Of a DNA stretch of 64,000 bases, positions 8,980 to 60,030 are shown piece after piece; position 1 is the first letter of the stretch; every line of letters starts with the position of its first letter. The notes beneath the pieces were generated by a model, which saw only the letters and a program-made list of their open reading frames with translations, was not told the DNA's origin and did not search any database. The position numbers and the translations under genes were made by a program. The DNA is from Octopus vulgaris (Eukaryota). The stretch is from the NCBI GenBank assembly GCA_951406725.2, contig OX597823.1:31558001-31622000 (forward strand), in the 5' to 3' direction.

Positions 8980-9445
8980 CAGCTGGAGGCAACTGCAAGA
9001 GTTACAGGGAATATGAGACCGAGAATAGACAAACGATACAGAAGTGGACATACGAAAGAGGAGAATGAATGTAATTCAAGACGAGGTCGCTAGTGGACGG
9101 ATGGGGTACTAAAACAGAATGAATAAAAAAAAACAGAATGCAGCCTTAAGGCCAGATGCAAAGGAAGCATGGGTAACGCTTAGAGGGAAATCCTAAAGAA
9201 TTTGGAACATAAGGGCAACAGATATCGTAACAGGCTGAAATGGAGACTAGAGTTGCAGGGACTCGCAGGCGCCTCCAGCTGGAAAGTAATTTTATCGTTA
9301 AAGGCATGAAATTGCGTCAAACCCTCTGATCGATAACTGATGAGAAATTGGGGACCTTCTGTATCTGTTTTCCGTTCGTCTGTGCATTTGATATATGTTT
9401 ATACCTTACGATTCTGTGTCTGTTTTTCGTTTGTGCATTTACTAT
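8980..9445 (+). mobile_element. Penelope-pLTR-like repeat carrying a permuted HHR; 5' part inverted; same family as 58765-59650
   Basis: Shared motifs attcaagacgag, tagtggacgga, gtggacatacga, gggtaacgc, atcctaaag and ttatcgttaaaggc...aactgatga. Confidence 0.6.
9286..9344 (+). ncRNA. Non-circularly permuted hammerhead-like ribozyme (family X1)
   Basis: GTAAT-T-TTATCG ... T-GAA-ATTGC ... CGATAA-CTGATGA-G; stem III GTAAT/ATTGC, stem I TTATCG/CGATAA. Confidence 0.7.
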
Positions 9446-10583: not shown

Positions 10584-12054
10584 ACTTTCGGGTAAGATTT
10601 TCTTACTGGGCCATTGCGCCTCCACACTTGTTCCCGGCACCCTTAGTCACTTTTAGTAACGGTATACATATGTGTATGTATGTATGTATGTATGTATGTA
10701 TGTATGTATGTATGTATGTATGCAGGTATTTACGCAGACACACGCACACATATATAAATATACATACATGCATGCATACATACATACGTATACCTGCATA
10801 TATATCCAATATCCTATGTAATTTTGTTTTTAAGCTTTCAGGAGTCACCGGGAATCTTCGTAAATGGATCACCACTTCACGCTATTACTATAAATCAATA
10901 ACTAAATTAAACTTCAAAGTGAGACAGAATATGTAAGGCAATGTAATAAATGAAAACAAAGATAAAATATATTGTATTACCTTATATAAGTTTTTCAAAG
11001 ATTCTATTACATTTCGGGTAAGATTTTCCTTTTCAAATATAAGGCAGTAAATAATCAAAGTCTTTGGAGAAATGTATTTAACGGGCAAGCCATTTTAATG
11101 TTTTGAATTCTGATGAAATGAAAATATGATTATCAATCTCTTTATGGTATTTTGGTATTTATTAACATTTTTTTGTTTCTTCTGCTCAAATTAAAAATTT
11201 AATAAAATGGTAATTACAAAGCTATGCTTACACACCGAATAATATATTGATCATAATTGTTTGCAGATATTGTTTCTTTTCACATGTTCCAAACATGTGC
11301 AGCATACATGTTTCGTGTGTTTTTTCTACATGTCTTACACATCATATCCATCGTGTTTGAAACATAATCAACCAGCAAACTAATGTTCCGTTGACCTTTC
11401 TATCTTCCCGCCATTAACGCACACTTTTTCATCTTTGAACTTATCGTAGTCGTCGAGAAAATATTTCAACTACTAATGTCGGGAAAGTCTTAACACTAAA
11501 ACATGCATGTAATTTTTACGAAAGGCTATCCATCATATTTACACTTCGCTGTTTGCAGTAATCAAGTGATTACATATTTCTAAACGAGTTTTCAGCAACA
11601 ATCTTGGCTCGGTTTCTAACTCAACTTCAGGTATTCATTCCTCAGCGGTGTCATTTTCCATCGGTTCCATAATTTGTGATCCAATAAAAATGACGGCTTT
11701 TAATTTTGCTATCAATTGGAGGTGAAAGGTAATAGAACGCGCTTCCATCTTCATTAAGAGAATCTACGAATGTTTTATGCATCATATCTGTGTATGTGTG
11801 TGTGTATGCGTGCGTGTGTCTGTTTACACACACATACATATATCGAAAGAGAAATAGACAGACAGTCAGACAGATAGATTCGTAATTTCCTATAACGAAT
11901 ATATATACATGTCATATATTGTGTGTGTGAGTGTGTGTATGTATATGTGTGTGAAAGGAGGATATCTCGTAGGGCCTATAAAAGTGATGATATATAATTT
12001 TTGTTCTAAAAATGCAAACGGAATCGCATGTTATATATCGATATTCAGTCATTA

Positions 12055-12446
12055 GAATTCCACTCGTGGCACTCCGTCGGTTACGACGACGACGGTTCCA
12101 GTTGATCCGATCAACGGAACATGCTCCTCGTGAAATTAACGTGCAAGTGGCTGAGCACTCCACAGACGCGTGTACCCTTAACGTAGTTCTCGGGGGGAAG
12201 ATTCAGCGTGACACAGAGTGTCACAAGGCTGGCCCCTTTGAAATACAAGTACAACAGAAAGAGGAAGAAAGAGTGAAAGTTGTAGTGAAAGAGTACAACA
12301 GGGTTTGCCACCACCCCACGCCGGAACCTCGTGAAGCTTTAGGTGTTTTCACTCAATACACTCTCACAACGCCCGGTTTGGGAATCGAAACCGCGATCCT
12401 ATGACCACGAGTCCGCTGCCCTAACCACTGGGCCATTGCACCTCCA
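12055..12446 (-). mobile_element. tRNA-derived SINE family S3 (tail type b)
   Basis: A-box TGGCCCAGTGG, B-box GTTTCGATTCC; shared middle, distinct tail. Confidence 0.88.
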
Positions 12447-12771
12447 CAGATCTCCACTGTTCCAATGCTTTTAGAGCGGTGCCTTAGTCTGAACTCCTGA
12501 TCTTAAAATAACTTTACGTACTTCTGCAAGAATTGCCATAACATTTTTTGAGATCCTGGCAGAAGGACGTAAACCAGTTTCCCTATACCGCCGGCAAAAG
12601 AGCATCTTATTGCCTTTGAACCACGCAAACTAATCAATTGTGTAATTGATAATTTATAGTAATTTTCAAAACATTCCAAGCAATCACATGTTTCAAAAAC
12701 GGTAAGAATGATGTTGTTAATGCTATGGTAATCACAACCATCACCTCTACTATTAGTACAACCACCGCAGT

Positions 12772-12772
<1 letters not shown>

Positions 12773-12837
<65 letters not shown>

Positions 12838-12850
12838 GACTACTACTATA
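12773..12850 (+). repeat. (CTA)n microsatellite
   Basis: Seen directly. Confidence 0.95.
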
Positions 12851-13424
12851 TCTAATACCAGTGCCACCACCACCAGCATAACCTTACTACTTTTTATCAC
12901 ACAACCACGACAACACTACTACTACTACTGCTACTGCTACTGCTACTGCTACTACAACTGCTGCTGCCACGACTTATGTCACTACTGCTGCCCTTGCTGC
13001 TACTGCTTTAAGACATTGTTTATGTTCATTGTTGTCCATTTATCTTTAGTATTTATCGATCACATAAATTTGATTGATTGTGTTTCAGTCGAAATCTCAT
13101 TTCAAGCTTAAATCCACAACTCTGTGATGTTAACGGCTGCTATTTCCATTTGTTTCCTGTCACTTTTGAGTGTTCTCTTCAACATTTTACATTAGATCCA
13201 TCTAATGTATTCCTAATGTACAAATAACAATTTGTTTTTAAAGTATCTTTTTGGCTTTTTATCTCAGCCAATATTTTCGTTCCTTGCTTGCTATTACGTA
13301 AATTTGTCTCGTGTTGTGTTAAGTTAGATTATGTGAGAGAGTAAACAGAACTTATGACGTGTGTGTGTGTATATATGTATGCATGTATGTTTGTATGTCT
13401 AATATTATGCATATATATATATAC

Positions 13425-13456
<32 letters not shown>

Positions 13457-13477
13457 GTATTTATGTATGTGTATATA

Positions 13478-13570
13478 TAGGATGACCGAGTGGTCTAAAA
13501 CGCTGCATTCAATGCGTTCAGATTGAAATCGGATCTTCCTAGCGTGAGTTCGAATTTACATGCATCCACT
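13478..13570 (+). pseudogene. tRNA-Leu-like pseudogene / SINE head
   Basis: AGGATGACCGAGTGGTCTAAAACGCTGC...TGCGTTCAG...GCGTGAGTTCGAAT resembles tRNA-Leu(CAG); acceptor stem broken. Confidence 0.6.
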
Positions 13571-13733
13571 AGTGTAGCTAGAAGCTTTCCTTTTCTGACT
13601 GGCCAGCATCTCCCACGCATCGATGAGCGTCATAAACACTTCGATGTATAAAACGCTAAAGTTAGCTATTCGAGTTTAGCAAATGTCACTAACAACATCG
13701 CACGCTACAACAAAAACGAACACGCATATACAG

Positions 13734-13815
<82 letters not shown>

Positions 13816-13896
13816 AATATTAGGGAATAAATCCAAATTTACAGGGAAAAAATCAGATTTAGGATTAAATCCAATTTTATAGTAAAATATTATATA

Positions 13897-14073
13897 ATAT
13901 TAATTAGAGACAAAACCACTATTTTGCAAAACAAACAAGGAAAGACTTAATCAATACATAAAATTTTTATAAAAAGTAAAAAAACCGCCACTACAATTGT
14001 TTCATGTCTAAAATTTTATGTATTGATTAAGTCTTTCCTTGTTTGTTTTGCAAAATAGTGGTTTTGTCTCTAA

Positions 14074-14078
<5 letters not shown>
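13897..14078. repeat. ~68-bp perfect inverted repeat (inverted Penelope-type terminal repeat) in (TA)n
   Basis: attaattagagacaaaaccac...aatacataaaatttt and its exact reverse complement; the spacer holds rc GAA-ACAATTGT-A (HHR 3' half). Confidence 0.85.
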
Positions 14079-14117
<39 letters not shown>

Positions 14118-14251
14118 GTTGTGCGCATTAATATATGCATATATAAATGTGAATATATACGTGTATGCATACGCATAAATATACGTATGTCCAGATCACT
14201 ATATGTGTATATAAGTGTATATACATACATACATATATTCTTTTATTTGTT

Positions 14252-14673
14252 TATTCTTTTACTTGTTTCAGTCATTTGACTGCGGTTATACTGGAGCACC
14301 GCCTTACAGCGTTTTACTCGAAGACTTCGACCCCAGGACTTCCTCTTTGTAACCAAAGTACTTATGTTTTGCCGAACCGCTACGTTAGGGGACGTAAACG
14401 CACCAAGTGACGTCAAGTGAGTGTTAGGAGGCAAACACAGACACAAAGACACACGCGCGCGCACACACACACACATACAAACACACAGACACATAGACAC
14501 ACAAACATATATATACGACGGGCTTCTTTCAGTTTCCGTCTACCAGATCCACTGACAAAGATTTAGTTGGCCCGAGGCTAGAAAAAGACACTTGCCCACA
14601 CTGTCACGCAATGCGACTGAACCCGGAACTTTGTGGTTGGAAAGCAAGTTTCTTACCACACGGCCATGCCTAT
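14252..14673 (-). mobile_element. SINE family S1, full length
   Basis: tRNA-like head (GGTTCAGT B-box), tgggcaagtgtctt core, internal (TG)n, CR1-like tail. Confidence 0.9.
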
Positions 14674-14855
14674 ATGTGTGTGTGTGTGTGTGTATGCATG
14701 CATATATTGACAATGATATATATACATATATACATATATACAGAGAGAGAGATACACACACATATGTGTGTGTGCAATTAAATGTCTGTATATGTACACA
14801 CATATATCCAATTATGTATACATACATACACACACACACACACACATATATACAC

Positions 14856-14898
<43 letters not shown>

Positions 14899-14903
14899 GC
14901 ATA

Positions 14904-14968
<65 letters not shown>

Positions 14969-14983
14969 GCATATATATGTATA

Positions 14984-15059
<76 letters not shown>

Positions 15060-15132
15060 ATTTCAGTTTTGGATTTGGTTTGCACGATTTTTTATGTGAG
15101 TTCGTGTGTTGAAGCATATTTTGTTGTGTTTA

Positions 15133-15372
15133 GAGAGTCATTCTCTTTTAGTGCTTTGTTATTTAACACACTCACCGGTAAAGTTTCCACTCATTTACTT
15201 ATTTATTTTTCCCAAAATTTTCGTTACGCCTTGCAACCTTTTCAATAGAGCCAACGACTATTGAAAAGGTTGCAAGACGTAACGAAAATTTTTGGAAAAA
15301 TAAATAAGTTAATGAGTGGAAATCGCACCGGTGAGTGTGTTAAATAACAAGGCACTAAAAGACAATGACTTT
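15133..15372. repeat. ~115-bp-arm inverted repeat (inverted pLTR) with an HHR on each arm
   Basis: gagtcattctct...ccttttcaatag / ctattgaaaagg...aagacaatgactt, 9-nt spacer. Confidence 0.9.
15211..15249 (-). ncRNA. Minimal type I hammerhead, U3-A8 core variant
   Basis: TCTA-TTGAAAA-G-GTTGC-aaggc-GTAAC-GAA-AATT-T-TGGG; mirror copy at 15258-15295 (+). Confidence 0.6.
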
Positions 15373-22331: not shown

Positions 22332-22357
22332 ACACACACACATATACATATATAATG

Positions 22358-22490
22358 AATTCAAACAAAGAAGAACAAACAAGAAAAAACAATAACGCGA
22401 GTACGTGGTACAAGTACTGTTTTACCAGACGCTCAGGAAAGGAATCAACGACGATTTAACGTTTCAAGCAAAGTTCTTCAGAAATTGAGG
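22358..22490 (-). mobile_element. HHR-bearing pLTR-like repeat family H2 (degenerate)
   Basis: ATTT-CTGAAGA-AC-ttt-GCTT-GAA-ACGT-T-AAAT, then the tcctgagcgtc motif shared with the 59.9 kb copy. Confidence 0.6.
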
Positions 22491-22519
22491 ACACTCCAAA
22501 AGACTGTCCCATTTTGTAC

Positions 22520-22553
<34 letters not shown>

Positions 22554-22649: not shown

Positions 22650-22859
22650 TAGCGGCGTAAATACACTTTGGTCTCTTATATGTAAGTATACATTTTTCTA
22701 AATCTTGTACGGCTCTATTTCTATCTACCAGCCCTTTCACGCTCTTTCGTTCATTCCACTCTCACATTTCTTTGCCTTCTCTTCTTGCTCACTTTCCCTC
22801 CACTTTTCACTTTATTGTGTCCCAGTCATTTTTTTCTCCCCTCTTTAATTCTTCTGTCA

Positions 22860-23370
22860 CTCTGCCTCTCTCTCATCTCTTCCCAAGTGGCCGACGTTCA
22901 GGCAAGCCTGATCTTTCTTTCTTGGTCTGGCCGTTGTCGGTGCAAAATCGATATTCCTCCCTGTGACTGTGAAATATTGTATCCCTGCCGTAAGGCTTCA
23001 TTTCCACACACGACAGCTTAATCTAATTCGTCCTTAGTCGAAAGACACCTGTTGTTATGTCCTGTTATTGTTTTTATTGTATTTGTGTAACATTGTCCGT
23101 TTCTTTCCGTCCTTGTTTTTTATACATTCGCTGCTTTCTTCCAAGGAATCTAATGCTCTTAGCTTAGTTTTTCCTTGGGACTGGCCAGATTGGTTCAATA
23201 TCGAGTATAACCAACCGAAACTGCAAAGATAACCTGGAACTCGACTGAGGAAAGAAAACACCGAATGACCCGTCCTTGTTTTCGTTGTATCGTCTATCTG
23301 GATGTTTTGTTGTCCCTTTTTTGTATCACCTAACTGTCTGGATGTTTTGCGTTCTTGTCCCATTTTGTAT
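22860..23370 (+). mobile_element. pLTR-like repeat carrying permuted HHR family X2, ending in (TA)n
   Basis: T-rich tail ending tgtcccattttgta (also at 22505-22518). Confidence 0.5.
23196..23254 (+). ncRNA. Non-circularly permuted hammerhead-like ribozyme (family X2)
   Basis: CAAT-A-TCGAGT ... CC-GAA-ACTG ... ACTCGA-CTGAGGA-AAG. Confidence 0.7.
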
Positions 23371-23638
23371 TATATATATATATATAATTCCAAGAGAGTT
23401 AGAGGTTGTGAATCCAACCAACTAAAGGATAATATCTATCCAGTATACTGCTGGTAGAATAATAAATGAGTGATGGTAAAAATTTATACGGTAATTATTG
23501 CCGTATATATATATATAAAAGTAAATAAATGGTACAACGAGGCACCGATATTTACTTTCATTTATTTTCATATATATATATATACACACTTTTGCTCATT
23601 TCAGCCATGCGGATGTGGTCATGCTGGAGCACCATATA

Positions 23639-34062: not shown

Positions 34063-35078
34063 ATATATATCATTTATATTATTATATGATCGAACGCCAC
34101 GCATCCATTTCCAAGCATACATACATACATACATACATACATACATACATACATACATACATACATACATACACACACAAATATATATATATATACACAT
34201 ACATATCTACATATATATTTATACACACACATATGTATGTGTTTGGAATAAAATGTTATATATATGTATGTATATGTATGGCTACATGTGTATGCATACG
34301 TATGTGTATGTAAGTGTGTGGGAGTGTTTGTCTTTCTGTGTTTCACTGGTGATGCTTATGTATGTGGTATTCACATTTAGGGTCATCACTAATGATATTT
34401 GTAGGCCGAGGGACGTAACCAGATGAACCACTAAAAGAACGCACTCAGATCTAAGACCAAGACAAGCAAATTTAAGAGGAGAGGAGTCTGTCGACACCAT
34501 CGACCTCAGTACTTGACTGGAACTTTATTTTATCGACCCCTGAAGGAGGAAAGGTAATTTGACCTCCCCGTTGAAAAAATTAAAAATCTAAAATTAAATT
34601 GGGAAAAATACAAACATGAAATTCTGAATATAAAATATTTAAAAATCGAAACCTAAATGCAAACGTATGGAGGTGAAGGAGTGCTTCGTACCTTCTAATT
34701 TAATTTCAGTCGTTCAGTGCAGTTTGAAAGACAGAGAAGAGACAAAATTTGGGCTTTTATAATAAGAGTTCAAATAAATAAGTAAATCGCTTTTCAGAAA
34801 GCAGCCAATAAAAATATAAATATTGTATTGCACGAATGTGATGATTTATTTTCATATTGAAATTTTATGTCAAAAAAATATGTGAATTTTAATGAACGCT
34901 GAGGACAGTGTTTATTCCTTGTCTCATTGACGATTAATAACATTCCATATATTTCTTCATTTATATCTTTCTATATTTTAATCACAACTGTCTTTAATTC
35001 AGTGATTCTTCCGCCTTAATTTAATCTTTAAATCTGCACCAGAGTTTGTAATAGAGTCGAAATCAGATGATTGGGTGA

Positions 35079-36164: not shown

Positions 36165-36333
36165 TTAAAAATACCTTGGGAATGAAAACCCAGGTTCGAA
36201 ATTTCTCCAAGACACCTGATGAAGGCTGGAGGGTACAACAGTCGAAACGTTGTGTTAACAAACAAGATAAGGACAAATATCCGTCAATTGTAAATAATGT
36301 ACATAATTCCTCATCTCTTAAATATAGAACTGT
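35951..36333 (+). mobile_element. tRNA-Ile-like head + (TAA)(GAA)(CAA) + HHR composite element (family H1)
   Basis: GGTTAAGAGCGCCGGCTACTAACCCCAAGATTCC..TTCGATTCC head; HHR tail ending aaatatagaactgta. Confidence 0.85.
36211..36256 (+). ncRNA. Minimal type I hammerhead (Penelope-type)
   Basis: GACAC-CTGATGA-A-GGCTG-loop-CAGTC-GAA-ACGT-T-GTGTT. Confidence 0.85.
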
Positions 36334-48414: not shown

Positions 48415-48899
48415 TATATTTCATGTCACTCTAAGAAGCAGTGCACGTTACTAGAATTAAATGTAACAAACCACTTGAAATCGTTGTAAGAGCATCCGCA
48501 TAAGTGGTGTTAAGACATGTTAGTTTGTTCTGGCATTGAGTGGTATTAGATGTAATAATAATGTCAAACCAAAGAGTGAAGTTTTGAAATAATTTATTGC
48601 TTTAACTGAGGAAGGTATTACGCAATGCATGCATTTCCTATCATATATTATGCAAACCTGGAACGTACGTATTAAATTATCTCAAAATATCAGTGTTTTA
48701 TTTGGCCTTATTACAACTACGTGTGTATGTGCATGTGTATGTGTGTGAGTGCATGCTTTTGTCCTTCTCCGTCGCTTGACAACCTAGGTTGGACTTTTAC
48801 GTCCCTGTAACTTGGTTGCTCGGCCAAAGGGACATAACAAGTACTGATGACTGGATCAAATAAAAGAGGAAAAAAAGGGTAAAAGATAATATACATCAA

Positions 48900-54799: not shown

Positions 54800-55225
54800 C
54801 GTTTGCCTGTCTTTTCTCGAAGCTTGCTTTTTCAGCGTTCATCACTTCACATCATCTGGGCGTAACAACCCTCACCGTTTGTTTTTATAGTTTTGTTCTT
54901 ACTGTCCTGTTTTTGTTACCACTTTAACCCTCGGCAAAAAATCCCAAATTTTATTTAATTGGCTTTGCGGGAAGGATTGCCTTAATGAAGTCGCATCTTG
55001 TCCCTACCTTCGAAACGCAAAGTAGATAAAACAGGGGACAACTGATGAAGGGAATGTTCTTTATGTTGCCTGTCTCATTTCTCTATTTGTTTCTTTCGTT
55101 GTTTGGAAAAAAAGTTCGTTTTCTATGTTTTCGTTTTTTTTATTCTCGTTTCTCATTTTCACGCTTTTTTTTTGACGTCCTGTACCCATATATGCATGTA
55201 TATATATATAGATATGTATGTATAT
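54800..55225 (+). mobile_element. pLTR-like repeat carrying permuted HHR family X3
   Basis: T-rich flanks; terminal gacgtcctgtacccatatatgcatg also found inverted at 34.0 kb. Confidence 0.5.
54993..55052 (+). ncRNA. Non-circularly permuted hammerhead-like ribozyme (family X3)
   Basis: GCAT-C-TTGTCCC ... TTC-GAA-ACGC ... GGGACAA-CTGATGA-AGGG. Confidence 0.75.
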
Positions 55226-58764: not shown

Positions 58765-59650
58765 CGTATGCACAAACAAACGGAAAACATATACACAAAA
58801 GGTCGCCAAATAGTCATCAGTTATTGTCCAAAGGATTCCCACAATTTAGCGCCTTTAACGATAACATTAGTCCCCTTTGGTAGCGCCAGCGACGACAAGC
58901 CGCCGGGAAATAACGAGCCAATGAACAAAGGACCAAACACGAAAGAAAGTGTACATACAAATATGAAATAAATATATCTTTATATATAAAAGTAAGGTTG
59001 TGTGTCTGTCTCCTACGATTTAGATTCCTAACTACTCCCACATTTTGCGGTGCAGTTTAACCAACACCGGGTATCTTATAGTCGTGATTTATATCGAGCC
59101 CTTCTGGGTATTAGCGCGCGTCTACGATGAGTCTACGATTTTAAAAAAAATTTACCATCATTTTTTTCATTTTAATGCATTTTTTCGCTATTATATAAGA
59201 GAAGTAACTCTCTAAAAATGTCTACGATGAGTCAACAATTTAAAAAAAAATTTACCATCATTTTCTTTCCATTTTTAATGCATTTTTTTGCTATTTTTTG
59301 GCTATAACTCTCTAAAAAATGCTTATATAGTTATTTCCCTTACAAACCCGAGCAACGCCGGGCGATACTGCTAGTAGTATATTACATACAAACGAAATAA
59401 TATTCAAGACGAGACGAATAGTGGACGGACATGGCACAAACACATAAACAAACTGGACGGAATGTGGACATACGAACGGAATGAAATGAATAAACGGAAA
59501 TACCGCCTTACGACTCAGACATTAGACGAAAATAAGGGTAACGCCAAGACGAGTATCCTAAAGGATAAAATAGAAACGAGAGGAATAGAATATAGGGAAA
59601 TATTGATATTTCCATATCTCTCTAAAGGAGACTACGGCAGCGGTACTGGA
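58765..59650 (-). mobile_element. pLTR-like repeat family X1 (interrupted by Helitron A), with degenerate permuted HHR at 58813-58870
   Basis: rc CTAAT-G-TTATCGT...C-TAA-ATTGT...ACAATAA-CTGATGA; homologous to 8980-9445. Confidence 0.6.
58977..59374 (+). mobile_element. Non-autonomous Helitron family A
   Basis: A|TC ... CCCGAGCAACGCCGGG ... CTAG|T. Confidence 0.9.
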
Positions 59651-59807
59651 TATTAATAGTTATCGCCAAGCTAACATGGCAGTCCAGGAAAATAGGACGA
59701 ATGCTGCCGTTGATTAACTCCAAGAGGCCATCGCCTCTAGCTAGTTAACGGCAGCATTCGTCCTATTTTCCTGAACTGGCATGTTAGCTTTGCGATAACT
59801 ATTAATA
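59651..59807. mobile_element. ~155-bp palindromic MITE
   Basis: ~60-bp arms tattaatagttatcgc...gctgccgtt / aacggcagc...gcgataactattaata. Confidence 0.85.
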
Positions 59808-59859
59808 AAGAGGATATATATATGTGACCGCGTGTGTGTACCGTTGGCGATTTTTTTTC

Positions 59860-60029
59860 CTGTCTTCCCTTCTCTGGATCTTTCCTTATCCTATGTTTTC
59901 GACGAAGAGCTCCACCCGAAACGTTAAACCCTCCTTCTTTCCTTCTTTCCTGAGCGTCCAATAATAATATATTTGTTCCACGTCCTCACGTTGATGTTTT
60001 TTTTTGTGCTTTCTTGTTTGGATTAACTA

Positions 60030-60030
<1 letters not shown>
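59860..60030 (+). mobile_element. Family H2 pLTR-like repeat, degenerate HHR at 59895-59929
   Basis: GTTT-TCGACGA-A-GAGC-tcc-ACCC-GAA-ACGT-T-AAAC; downstream tcctgagcgtc. Confidence 0.6.

Follow-up and report, generated by a model that had tools for sequence, protein, structure and literature searches.

The DNA analysed, hereafter the window, is a stretch of 64,000 nucleotides from Octopus vulgaris (contig OX597823.1, positions 31,558,001 to 31,622,000), AT-rich and rich in microsatellites; its repeats appear cephalopod-like. It holds a repeat unit with a hammerhead-like motif, X2, in its 3' part. A first-pass annotation had placed a permuted hammerhead at 23196-23254; the true extent of the motif is 23135-23257, and the earlier coordinates cover only a part of it. 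The features of the locus are as follows.

22655-23368, plus strand: repeat unit carrying the X2 motif, about 740 nt including the junction, non-coding, with head-to-tail joints in contigs
23135-23140, plus strand: 5' strand of helix X, six pairs with 23252-23257, present in the MFE fold
23141-23178, plus strand: hairpin Y, 23141-23148 with 23171-23178 (8 of 8 pairs), in the MFE fold, directly between X and stem II
23179-23184, plus strand: 5' strand of stem II, G10.1 at 23179, located 5' of the predicted cleavage site; the X2 copy forms 4 of 6 pairs
23185-23192, plus strand: 5' strand of the stem III extension, pairs with 23230-23237 (7 of 8 pairs)
23195-23200, plus strand: block S, a stem III strand with U16.1 at 23199 and H17 at 23200; predicted cleavage after 23200
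23201-23206, plus strand: stem I strand 3' of the predicted site, 6 of 6 pairs with 23239-23244
23211-23224, plus strand: block G, with the stem II 3' strand (23211-23216), GAAA (23217-23220) and a stem III strand (23220-23224)
23230-23237, plus strand: 3' strand of the stem III extension, pairing with 23185-23192
23239-23251, plus strand: stem I 5' strand and core, CUGAGGA at 23245-23251
23252-23257, plus strand: 3' strand of helix X, beginning directly after A9
23258-23386, plus strand: T-rich tail, 46% T over 23258-23368, (TA)n from about 23371

All bases of the hammerhead core, CUGAnGA and GAAA, are present in X2. The letters given earlier proved correct: CAAT-A at 23196-23200, a stem I with 6 of 6 pairs, GAAA, a 15-nt spacer, CTGAGGA and a T-rich tail running to (TA)n. 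N7 is indeed the free position, being G in X2 and U at 9337 and 55042. Cleavage had been predicted after 23200, and a UH site with an A15.1-U16.1 pair is in place there (AUA in this copy, AUC in the family majority). In this copy stem I is fully paired (6/6) and stem III at 3 of 5 positions; stem II, with G10.1-C11.1, and stem III are complete once the majority letters of the family are used. The MFE fold contains X, Y and stem I, and the MFE z-scores of four copies in the window are only -0.2 to -1.2, which we count against our preferred explanation. Rfam hammerhead models matched neither X2 nor 11 further loci, as expected for a permuted order, and the Rfam matches to the window, among the 150 of 375 listed, were driven by microsatellites only.

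The earlier parse was right about the core and stem I; it gave no partner for stem II and missed X, Y and the stem III extension. Directly after CUGAGGA there are 0 of 5 pairs next to the core, and 1 of 5 if one extra A is allowed. The partner of stem II is the upstream strand 23179-23184, and helices X and Y bridge A9 to G10.1 without a linker. We place the partner upstream of the site because there the majority letters of the family turn mismatches into pairs. These letters come from three DNA runs, mapped together with one RNA run onto 22655-23368 at 80% likeness (10,948-15,220 contigs placed per DNA run, 1236 RNA reads; variants taken from the 40 listed of 205); in such a read and contig pileup, majority letters need not sit together on one molecule. 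Eight of the variants listed lie within 23135-23260. At all five mismatches of the X2 copy in stem II, stem III and the extension, the majority letters pair, in each of the three DNA runs, with shares of depth of 97-98% at 23180, 56-70% at 23214, 68-71% at 23221, 94-97% at 23195 and 96-100% at 23233. The letters at 23180 and 23214 repair both mismatches of stem II, and that at 23233 repairs the lone mismatch of the stem III extension. H17 (23200) is A in the X2 copy and C in most of the family, both of which are allowed. The majority letter at 23194 breaks one pair just beyond stem III, and the majority variant at 23260 falls outside the helices. Conservation of stem I across copies, which the first-pass annotation had made a test of the motif, holds in so far as neither strand is changed among the 40 variants listed of 205; behind 23193, loose ends carry a variant form of the 3' strand, and no partner for it was seen. 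Part of the X2 stretch is present in 20 of the 24 runs listed, from 14 studies and six organisms.

Of the mismatches in the X2 copy, two stand next to each other at G10.1-C11.1 and one adjoins A15.1-U16.1, and therefore this decayed genomic copy is probably inactive. Because of this decay, a cleavage assay on the X2 copy alone would not be decisive: it could fail without refuting the family.

The same layout is found at other places in the window.

9269-9343, plus strand: X1, stem I 6/6, displaced stem II 5/6, stem III 5/5, helix X 2/5; X and Y not made out
58814-58905 (core 58820), minus strand: X1b, a second, decayed X1 copy with core and H17 changed, displaced stem II 5/6, Y 6/6, X 1/5
54928-55052, plus strand: X3, stem I 6/6, displaced stem II 5/6, stem III 3/5, Y 5/6, X 4/5

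Three sites in the window (9337, 23245 and 55042) combine UH, a 6-bp stem I, an internal GAAA and CUGAnGA; 100 local dinucleotide shuffles contained 0.07 such sites on average and at most 1. The order of blocks with the 6-bp stem I thus bears out a permuted hammerhead-type motif, as had been claimed; CUGAnGA alone is hardly enriched (30 in the window against 20.6±4.6 expected). The block order S-G-C (site, GAAA, CUGAnGA), a non-circular order, occurs at three unrelated sites of the window. X1, X2 and X3 had been described as independent sequences of one architecture, and so they appear, with the same layout and, among the matches listed, no blastn match of X2 to X1 or X3. With a six-helix descriptor, drawn up after the sites had been seen, X2 scores 26, compared with a maximum of 20.5 among 93 core-complete sites in 60 shuffled windows. 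A CTGATGA at 48844 was set aside as part of a common short repeat, and the weak descriptor matches at 34838, 48545, L156, L157 and L126 were taken as chance.

We compared the helices between families, with registers set by hand. In X2, X1, X1b, X3 and the loci L022 (of the coral-type family) and L142 from other DNA (six examples, five families; see below), changes on both sides of the helix are seen at 6/6 positions of stem I, 5/6 of stem II, 4/5 of stem III, 6/6 of Y and 5/5 of X, and G10.1 and the A15.1-U16.1 pair are invariant. In six examples the displaced strand of stem II pairs at 4-6 of 6 positions, versus 0-3 of 5, mostly G-U, for the sequence adjacent to the core; X3 can form a weak G-C, G-U, G-U stem there. 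Helix X is unsupported in both X1 copies (2/5 and 1/5), and the length of Y varies from 15 to 39 nt.

The closest known hammerheads are those of type SGC (HRIMA-1 and variants; Eckert et al. 2023, PMC10085705). X2 and type SGC are alike in the order site-GAAA-CUGAnGA, the core bases, stems I and III and the pseudoknotting. A further trait of SGC is a helix that connects stems I and II at their outer ends; in X2 a linker of 4 nt runs between the strands of these two stems, as it does in SGC, and the extra helices found extend stem III or sit in the core. In type SGC, however, stem II follows directly after CUGAnGA, whereas in X2 it lies upstream and X and Y are inserted; type SGC is known from metatranscriptomes and not from the genome of any known organism (PMC10085705), and X2 from animal DNA repeats. 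According to Eckert et al., block C is assumed to be uninterrupted, with at most 1-2 inserted bases, six hammerhead orders are possible on the assumption that CUGAnGA is inseparable from its stem II strand, and the non-circular forms occur in no known genome, one weak bacterial case excepted (PMC10085705). Stem II within 0-2 nt of CUGAnGA is what X2 lacks (0/5, 1/5); because its block C is interrupted, X2 is not type SGC as defined. Its ring order is that of type CSG, of which two metagenomic sequences cleave (PMC10085705); X2 is opened inside the X-Y insert and type CSG before stem I.

The place of X2 in its element, a 3' repeat with T-rich tail and tandem units, is that of the type I hammerheads of Penelope-like elements and non-LTR retrozymes, which often have one extra base between A9 and G10.1, the very spot where X and Y are inserted in X2 (PMC4209133; bioRxiv 10.64898/2026.07.22.740005). 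These type I forms have a minimal stem III and are cut as dimers (same sources), whereas the X2 form has a full stem III and should work as a monomer. The window itself has canonical type I Penelope-style cores with an extra A before stem II at 36216 (plus), 43345 (plus), 35542 (minus), 63230 (minus) and 63271 (plus); they follow (AAT)n or (AAC)n, 63230 and 63271 form an inverted pair, and 63271 lacks part of GAAAC. As a short (about 740 nt), non-coding tandem unit with a hammerhead, the X2 unit is also similar to non-LTR retrozymes, but their hammerhead is type I and that of X2 is not. In the openly accessible literature searched, including PMC3088659, PMC13725137 and the Eckert supplement, we found no prior description of a hammerhead with helices between A9 and G10.1, or of such a hammerhead in Naiads.

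Overlapping contigs tile all of 22655-23368 in three DNA runs, and the joint from 23366 to 22655, via a TA-rich linker, is spanned by 3, 3 and 5 contigs, respectively. Depth, which is summed contig depth and not copy number, is about 55,000 at the start of the unit and increases to 1-2 million near its 3' end. The tandem joints and the 3'-biased depth fit a Penelope-like element. Tandem copies, 5' truncation and a (TA)n target, traits of the Naiad type, are all seen for X2. Published Naiads have (TA)n targets and partial tandems (PMC8557442). The X2 unit has no ORF: its frames are of low complexity only, at about 100 aa. An ORF with N-terminal GIY-YIG and C-terminal reverse transcriptase is absent from the unit, no Naiad motif matched in the window, and X2 has no sequence match to the Naiad loci described below or to the published consensi. 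The X2 unit is likely a non-autonomous Naiad-type Penelope-like element, a tie to the Naiads that we infer from architecture alone. In RNA run X24 (1236 reads, about 6/100 of the run) read ends do not pile up and the strands are about equal; the back-joint 23366-22655 is seen in DNA contigs only, with 0 reads in the same portion of X24.

Several other elements of the neighbourhood were noted. At 22679-22686, towards the 5' end of the X2 unit, a GTAAGT resembles a splice donor and precedes a pyrimidine-rich tract; a 5' intron is a feature of Penelope-like elements (PMC8557442). A second conserved module, ending in TAAGGC and with its own T-rich tail, lies at 22980-23060, 9140-9250 (minus) and 59495-59610 (minus); it is reminiscent of the 3' portion of a twister-like motif of bivalve Naiads, has high family depth at 23015-23062 and folds unremarkably. 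Two 3' ends of Penelope type, at 22352-22481 (minus) and 59830-60030 (plus), have decayed hammerhead cores and are related to each other (74% alike over 117 nt); the former adjoins the microsatellite left of X2 and has 30 terminal bases in common with the X2 tail (22505-22534). A long imperfect inverted repeat of about 160 nt, 87% self-complementary, at 59651-59807 is typical of the inverted 5' ends of Penelope-like insertions.

We searched for the layout in metagenome contigs with a pattern designed from a published coral Naiad and obtained at least 120 loci. Among those listed are 29 coral-type copies (26 scorable, descriptor 24.5-34) and 91 others, nearly all without stems (81 scorable, mean 17.3, maximum 24). 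An X2-specific pattern gave 0 matches in metagenome contigs. In 18 aligned coral-type copies, 95% of 863 cells pair, compared with 28-45% in slid registers; at 94% identity, this alignment contains 0 pairs with a compensatory change. For a stem II adjacent to CUGAnGA, the score is 0-0.5 in nearly every copy of the family. L020, one of the 91 others, is an independent family with complete stems II, III and I, its 5' end being cut off. In L013, a coral-type copy, the end of a reverse transcriptase lies about 530 nt upstream on the same strand, and the full-length relatives of this protein have an N-terminal GIY-YIG-like part and a C-terminal reverse transcriptase, which is the Naiad order.

Thirty-six such proteins were aligned and used to search genome contigs, which gave 43 Naiad-like loci (L127-L169); as they come from bacterial genome records, they are most likely animal host DNA in bins. 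A convincing hammerhead of C-S-G ring order was found in 4 of the 43 (L142, L143, L147 and L154); two weak matches were dropped as chance, and the remaining loci gave none. L142 has the full split layout downstream of its Naiad-like ORF, with a fold z-score of -4.55, and L143 and L147 are plain type CSG. L154 is CSG with X and Y as closed hairpins that fill the 29 nt between A9 and G10.1, and its motif stands once on each side of the ORF. L154 and the X2 layout are related by circular permutation, and L154 provides the strongest independent evidence for X and Y. No linker separates X and Y from A9 and G10.1 in L142, in the coral family or in the window copies X2 and X3. Every layout instance that could be linked to an ORF is linked to a Naiad, the published 3' ends (see below) having been judged by eye. 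In viral contigs the pattern scan gave 6 loci, none with stem I, and Naiad queries gave none that was confirmed; a profile of the coral family found nothing in the Naiad loci or the window. Apart from this, the Naiad-like ORF at L142:1-2637 runs past the reverse transcriptase into a domain resembling ubiquitin-specific protease (several homologues carry PF00443), and a SECIS element above the Rfam gathering score lies at L148:1060-1123, downstream of a Naiad-like ORF, with a similar stretch in L128.

Naiads were reported to be without canonical hammerheads by Craig et al. 2021, who flagged eight families, Naiad_Ovul among them, as 'HHR_half_core' (PMC8557442). We read by eye, unscored, the 3'-terminal 340-600 nt of 51 Naiad consensi (File S5, PMC8557442; all of its 54 but Bfor, Scon and Cmel). 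All helices of the split layout were seen in six of the 51: three from the coral Acropora (one with single mismatches), one from the clam shrimp Eulimnadia and two from Octopus, and Naiad_Ovul has the split layout by the same reading. As judged by eye, Clytia Naiad-3 and Morbakka Naiad-2 show stems II, III and I and the extension, X and Y aside; the Euprymna 3' end is decayed; six nematode Naiads have a plain CSG form with an extra helix; spider and ostracod ends contain CUGAnGA; and many bivalve and hemichordate Naiads have other motifs. In Naiads of oyster, ark shell, pearl oyster, hemichordate and Clytia, the ribozyme's place directly behind the ORF is taken by a different, conserved structured motif with CGGGTG and CACCTG at its two ends.

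Pairing across families gives the order along the chain as X 5' strand, Y, stem II 5' strand, stem III extension, stem III with the site, stem I, stem II 3' strand, GAAA, stem III, extension, stem I, CUGAnGA and X 3' strand. The fold that we propose would retain the standard hammerhead core; X, stacked on Y, would project between A9 and G10.1 in a four-way-junction-like arrangement. X and Y would hold A9 and G10.1 together despite the 72 nt that separate them in the chain, and stems I and II would be pseudoknots. Viewed as a ring, the motif would have the C-S-G order, with its opening placed in the loop of X. The A9-G10.1 step is one at which Penelope hammerheads already tolerate an extra base (PMC4209133; bioRxiv 10.64898/2026.07.22.740005). 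Cleavage is predicted to occur after H17. It may divide tandem or read-through transcripts into RNAs of unit size, which would then serve target-primed reverse transcription at (TA)n; processing of tandem transcripts has been proposed for the type I hammerheads of other Penelope-like elements (PMC4209133). We therefore consider that 23135-23257 is probably a decayed motif of hammerhead type, situated in the 3' part of a repeat that forms tandems and is likely a non-autonomous Naiad-type element; intact copies are predicted to cut themselves after the equivalent of 23200. Points against this reading are the lack of compensatory changes in the coral-type alignment, the unsupported helix X of the X1 copies, the missing ORF and Naiad match of X2, the small share of Naiad-like loci (4 of 43) with a hammerhead of this ring order, and the other motifs that many Naiads carry.

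That short motifs in AT-rich DNA fell into this arrangement by chance is scarcely credible: CUGAnGA alone is indeed near its chance frequency and 91 of the at least 120 pattern matches are not coral-type and nearly all without stems, but the shuffles, the majority letters and the cross-family pairing already contradict it. The S-G-C order and the weak stem adjoining the core in X3 would fit an ordinary type SGC hammerhead in which the stem II beside CUGAnGA has decayed. This reading is very improbable, being already contradicted by the pairing of the adjacent (0-3/5) as compared with the displaced strand (4-6/6) in six examples; moreover, the adjacent score is 0-0.5 in nearly all copies of the intact coral-type family. 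It is also improbable that stem II is displaced while X and Y are incidental, the core tolerating a break between A9 and G10.1. Although X was not made out in the X1 copies and Y ranges from 15 to 39 nt, X and Y are free of linkers in X2, X3, the coral family and L142; in L154 they are found again at this position, in the form of closed hairpins.

The fold may be right without autonomous cutting, the motif being a hammerhead-derived structure that needs a protein of the element, or mainly a recognition site for the reverse transcriptase. We regard this as unlikely. Need for the catalytic bases of the hammerhead is a signature of cleavage, and all catalytic positions, together with the UH site, are kept across families and several phyla. 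The points in favour of a non-cutting structure are that RNA ends do not pile up in run X24 (about 6/100 of the run), that folding requires two pseudoknots, that other Penelope hammerheads are slow, and that in the PAc Penelope-like element the hammerhead cut only with protein and cleavage was dispensable for insertion in vitro (PMC11167929). The PAc result and the lack of an end pile-up speak against a simple processing role. Only a little less doubtful is that the motif is as described and X2 belongs to a retroelement group other than Naiads: X2 has no sequence link to a Naiad ORF, and Craig et al. call the cephalopod Naiads old remnants (PMC8557442). However, all layout instances linkable to an ORF, partly by eye, are Naiads, and the (TA)n targets and tandems fit Naiads.

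Taking the decayed, Naiad-type hammerhead as the preferred reading, we lean towards a wider one. X2 and its relatives may represent a seventh natural wiring of the hammerhead, opened in the catalytic strand via a stacked two-helix insert and active in Naiads of cnidarians, crustaceans and cephalopods. Together with the nematode CSG and the closed-insert forms, Naiads would then hold a series of circular permutants, which would explain their 'missing' hammerhead and provide the genomic home of non-circularly permuted hammerheads. This bears on two published statements, on the possible hammerhead orders (Eckert et al., PMC10085705) and on Naiads without canonical hammerheads (PMC8557442). If the motif cuts, its topology would be new, the core being naturally interrupted by a four-way-junction-like insert that might accommodate engineered switches; non-circular hammerheads would in that case be abundant in animal DNA.
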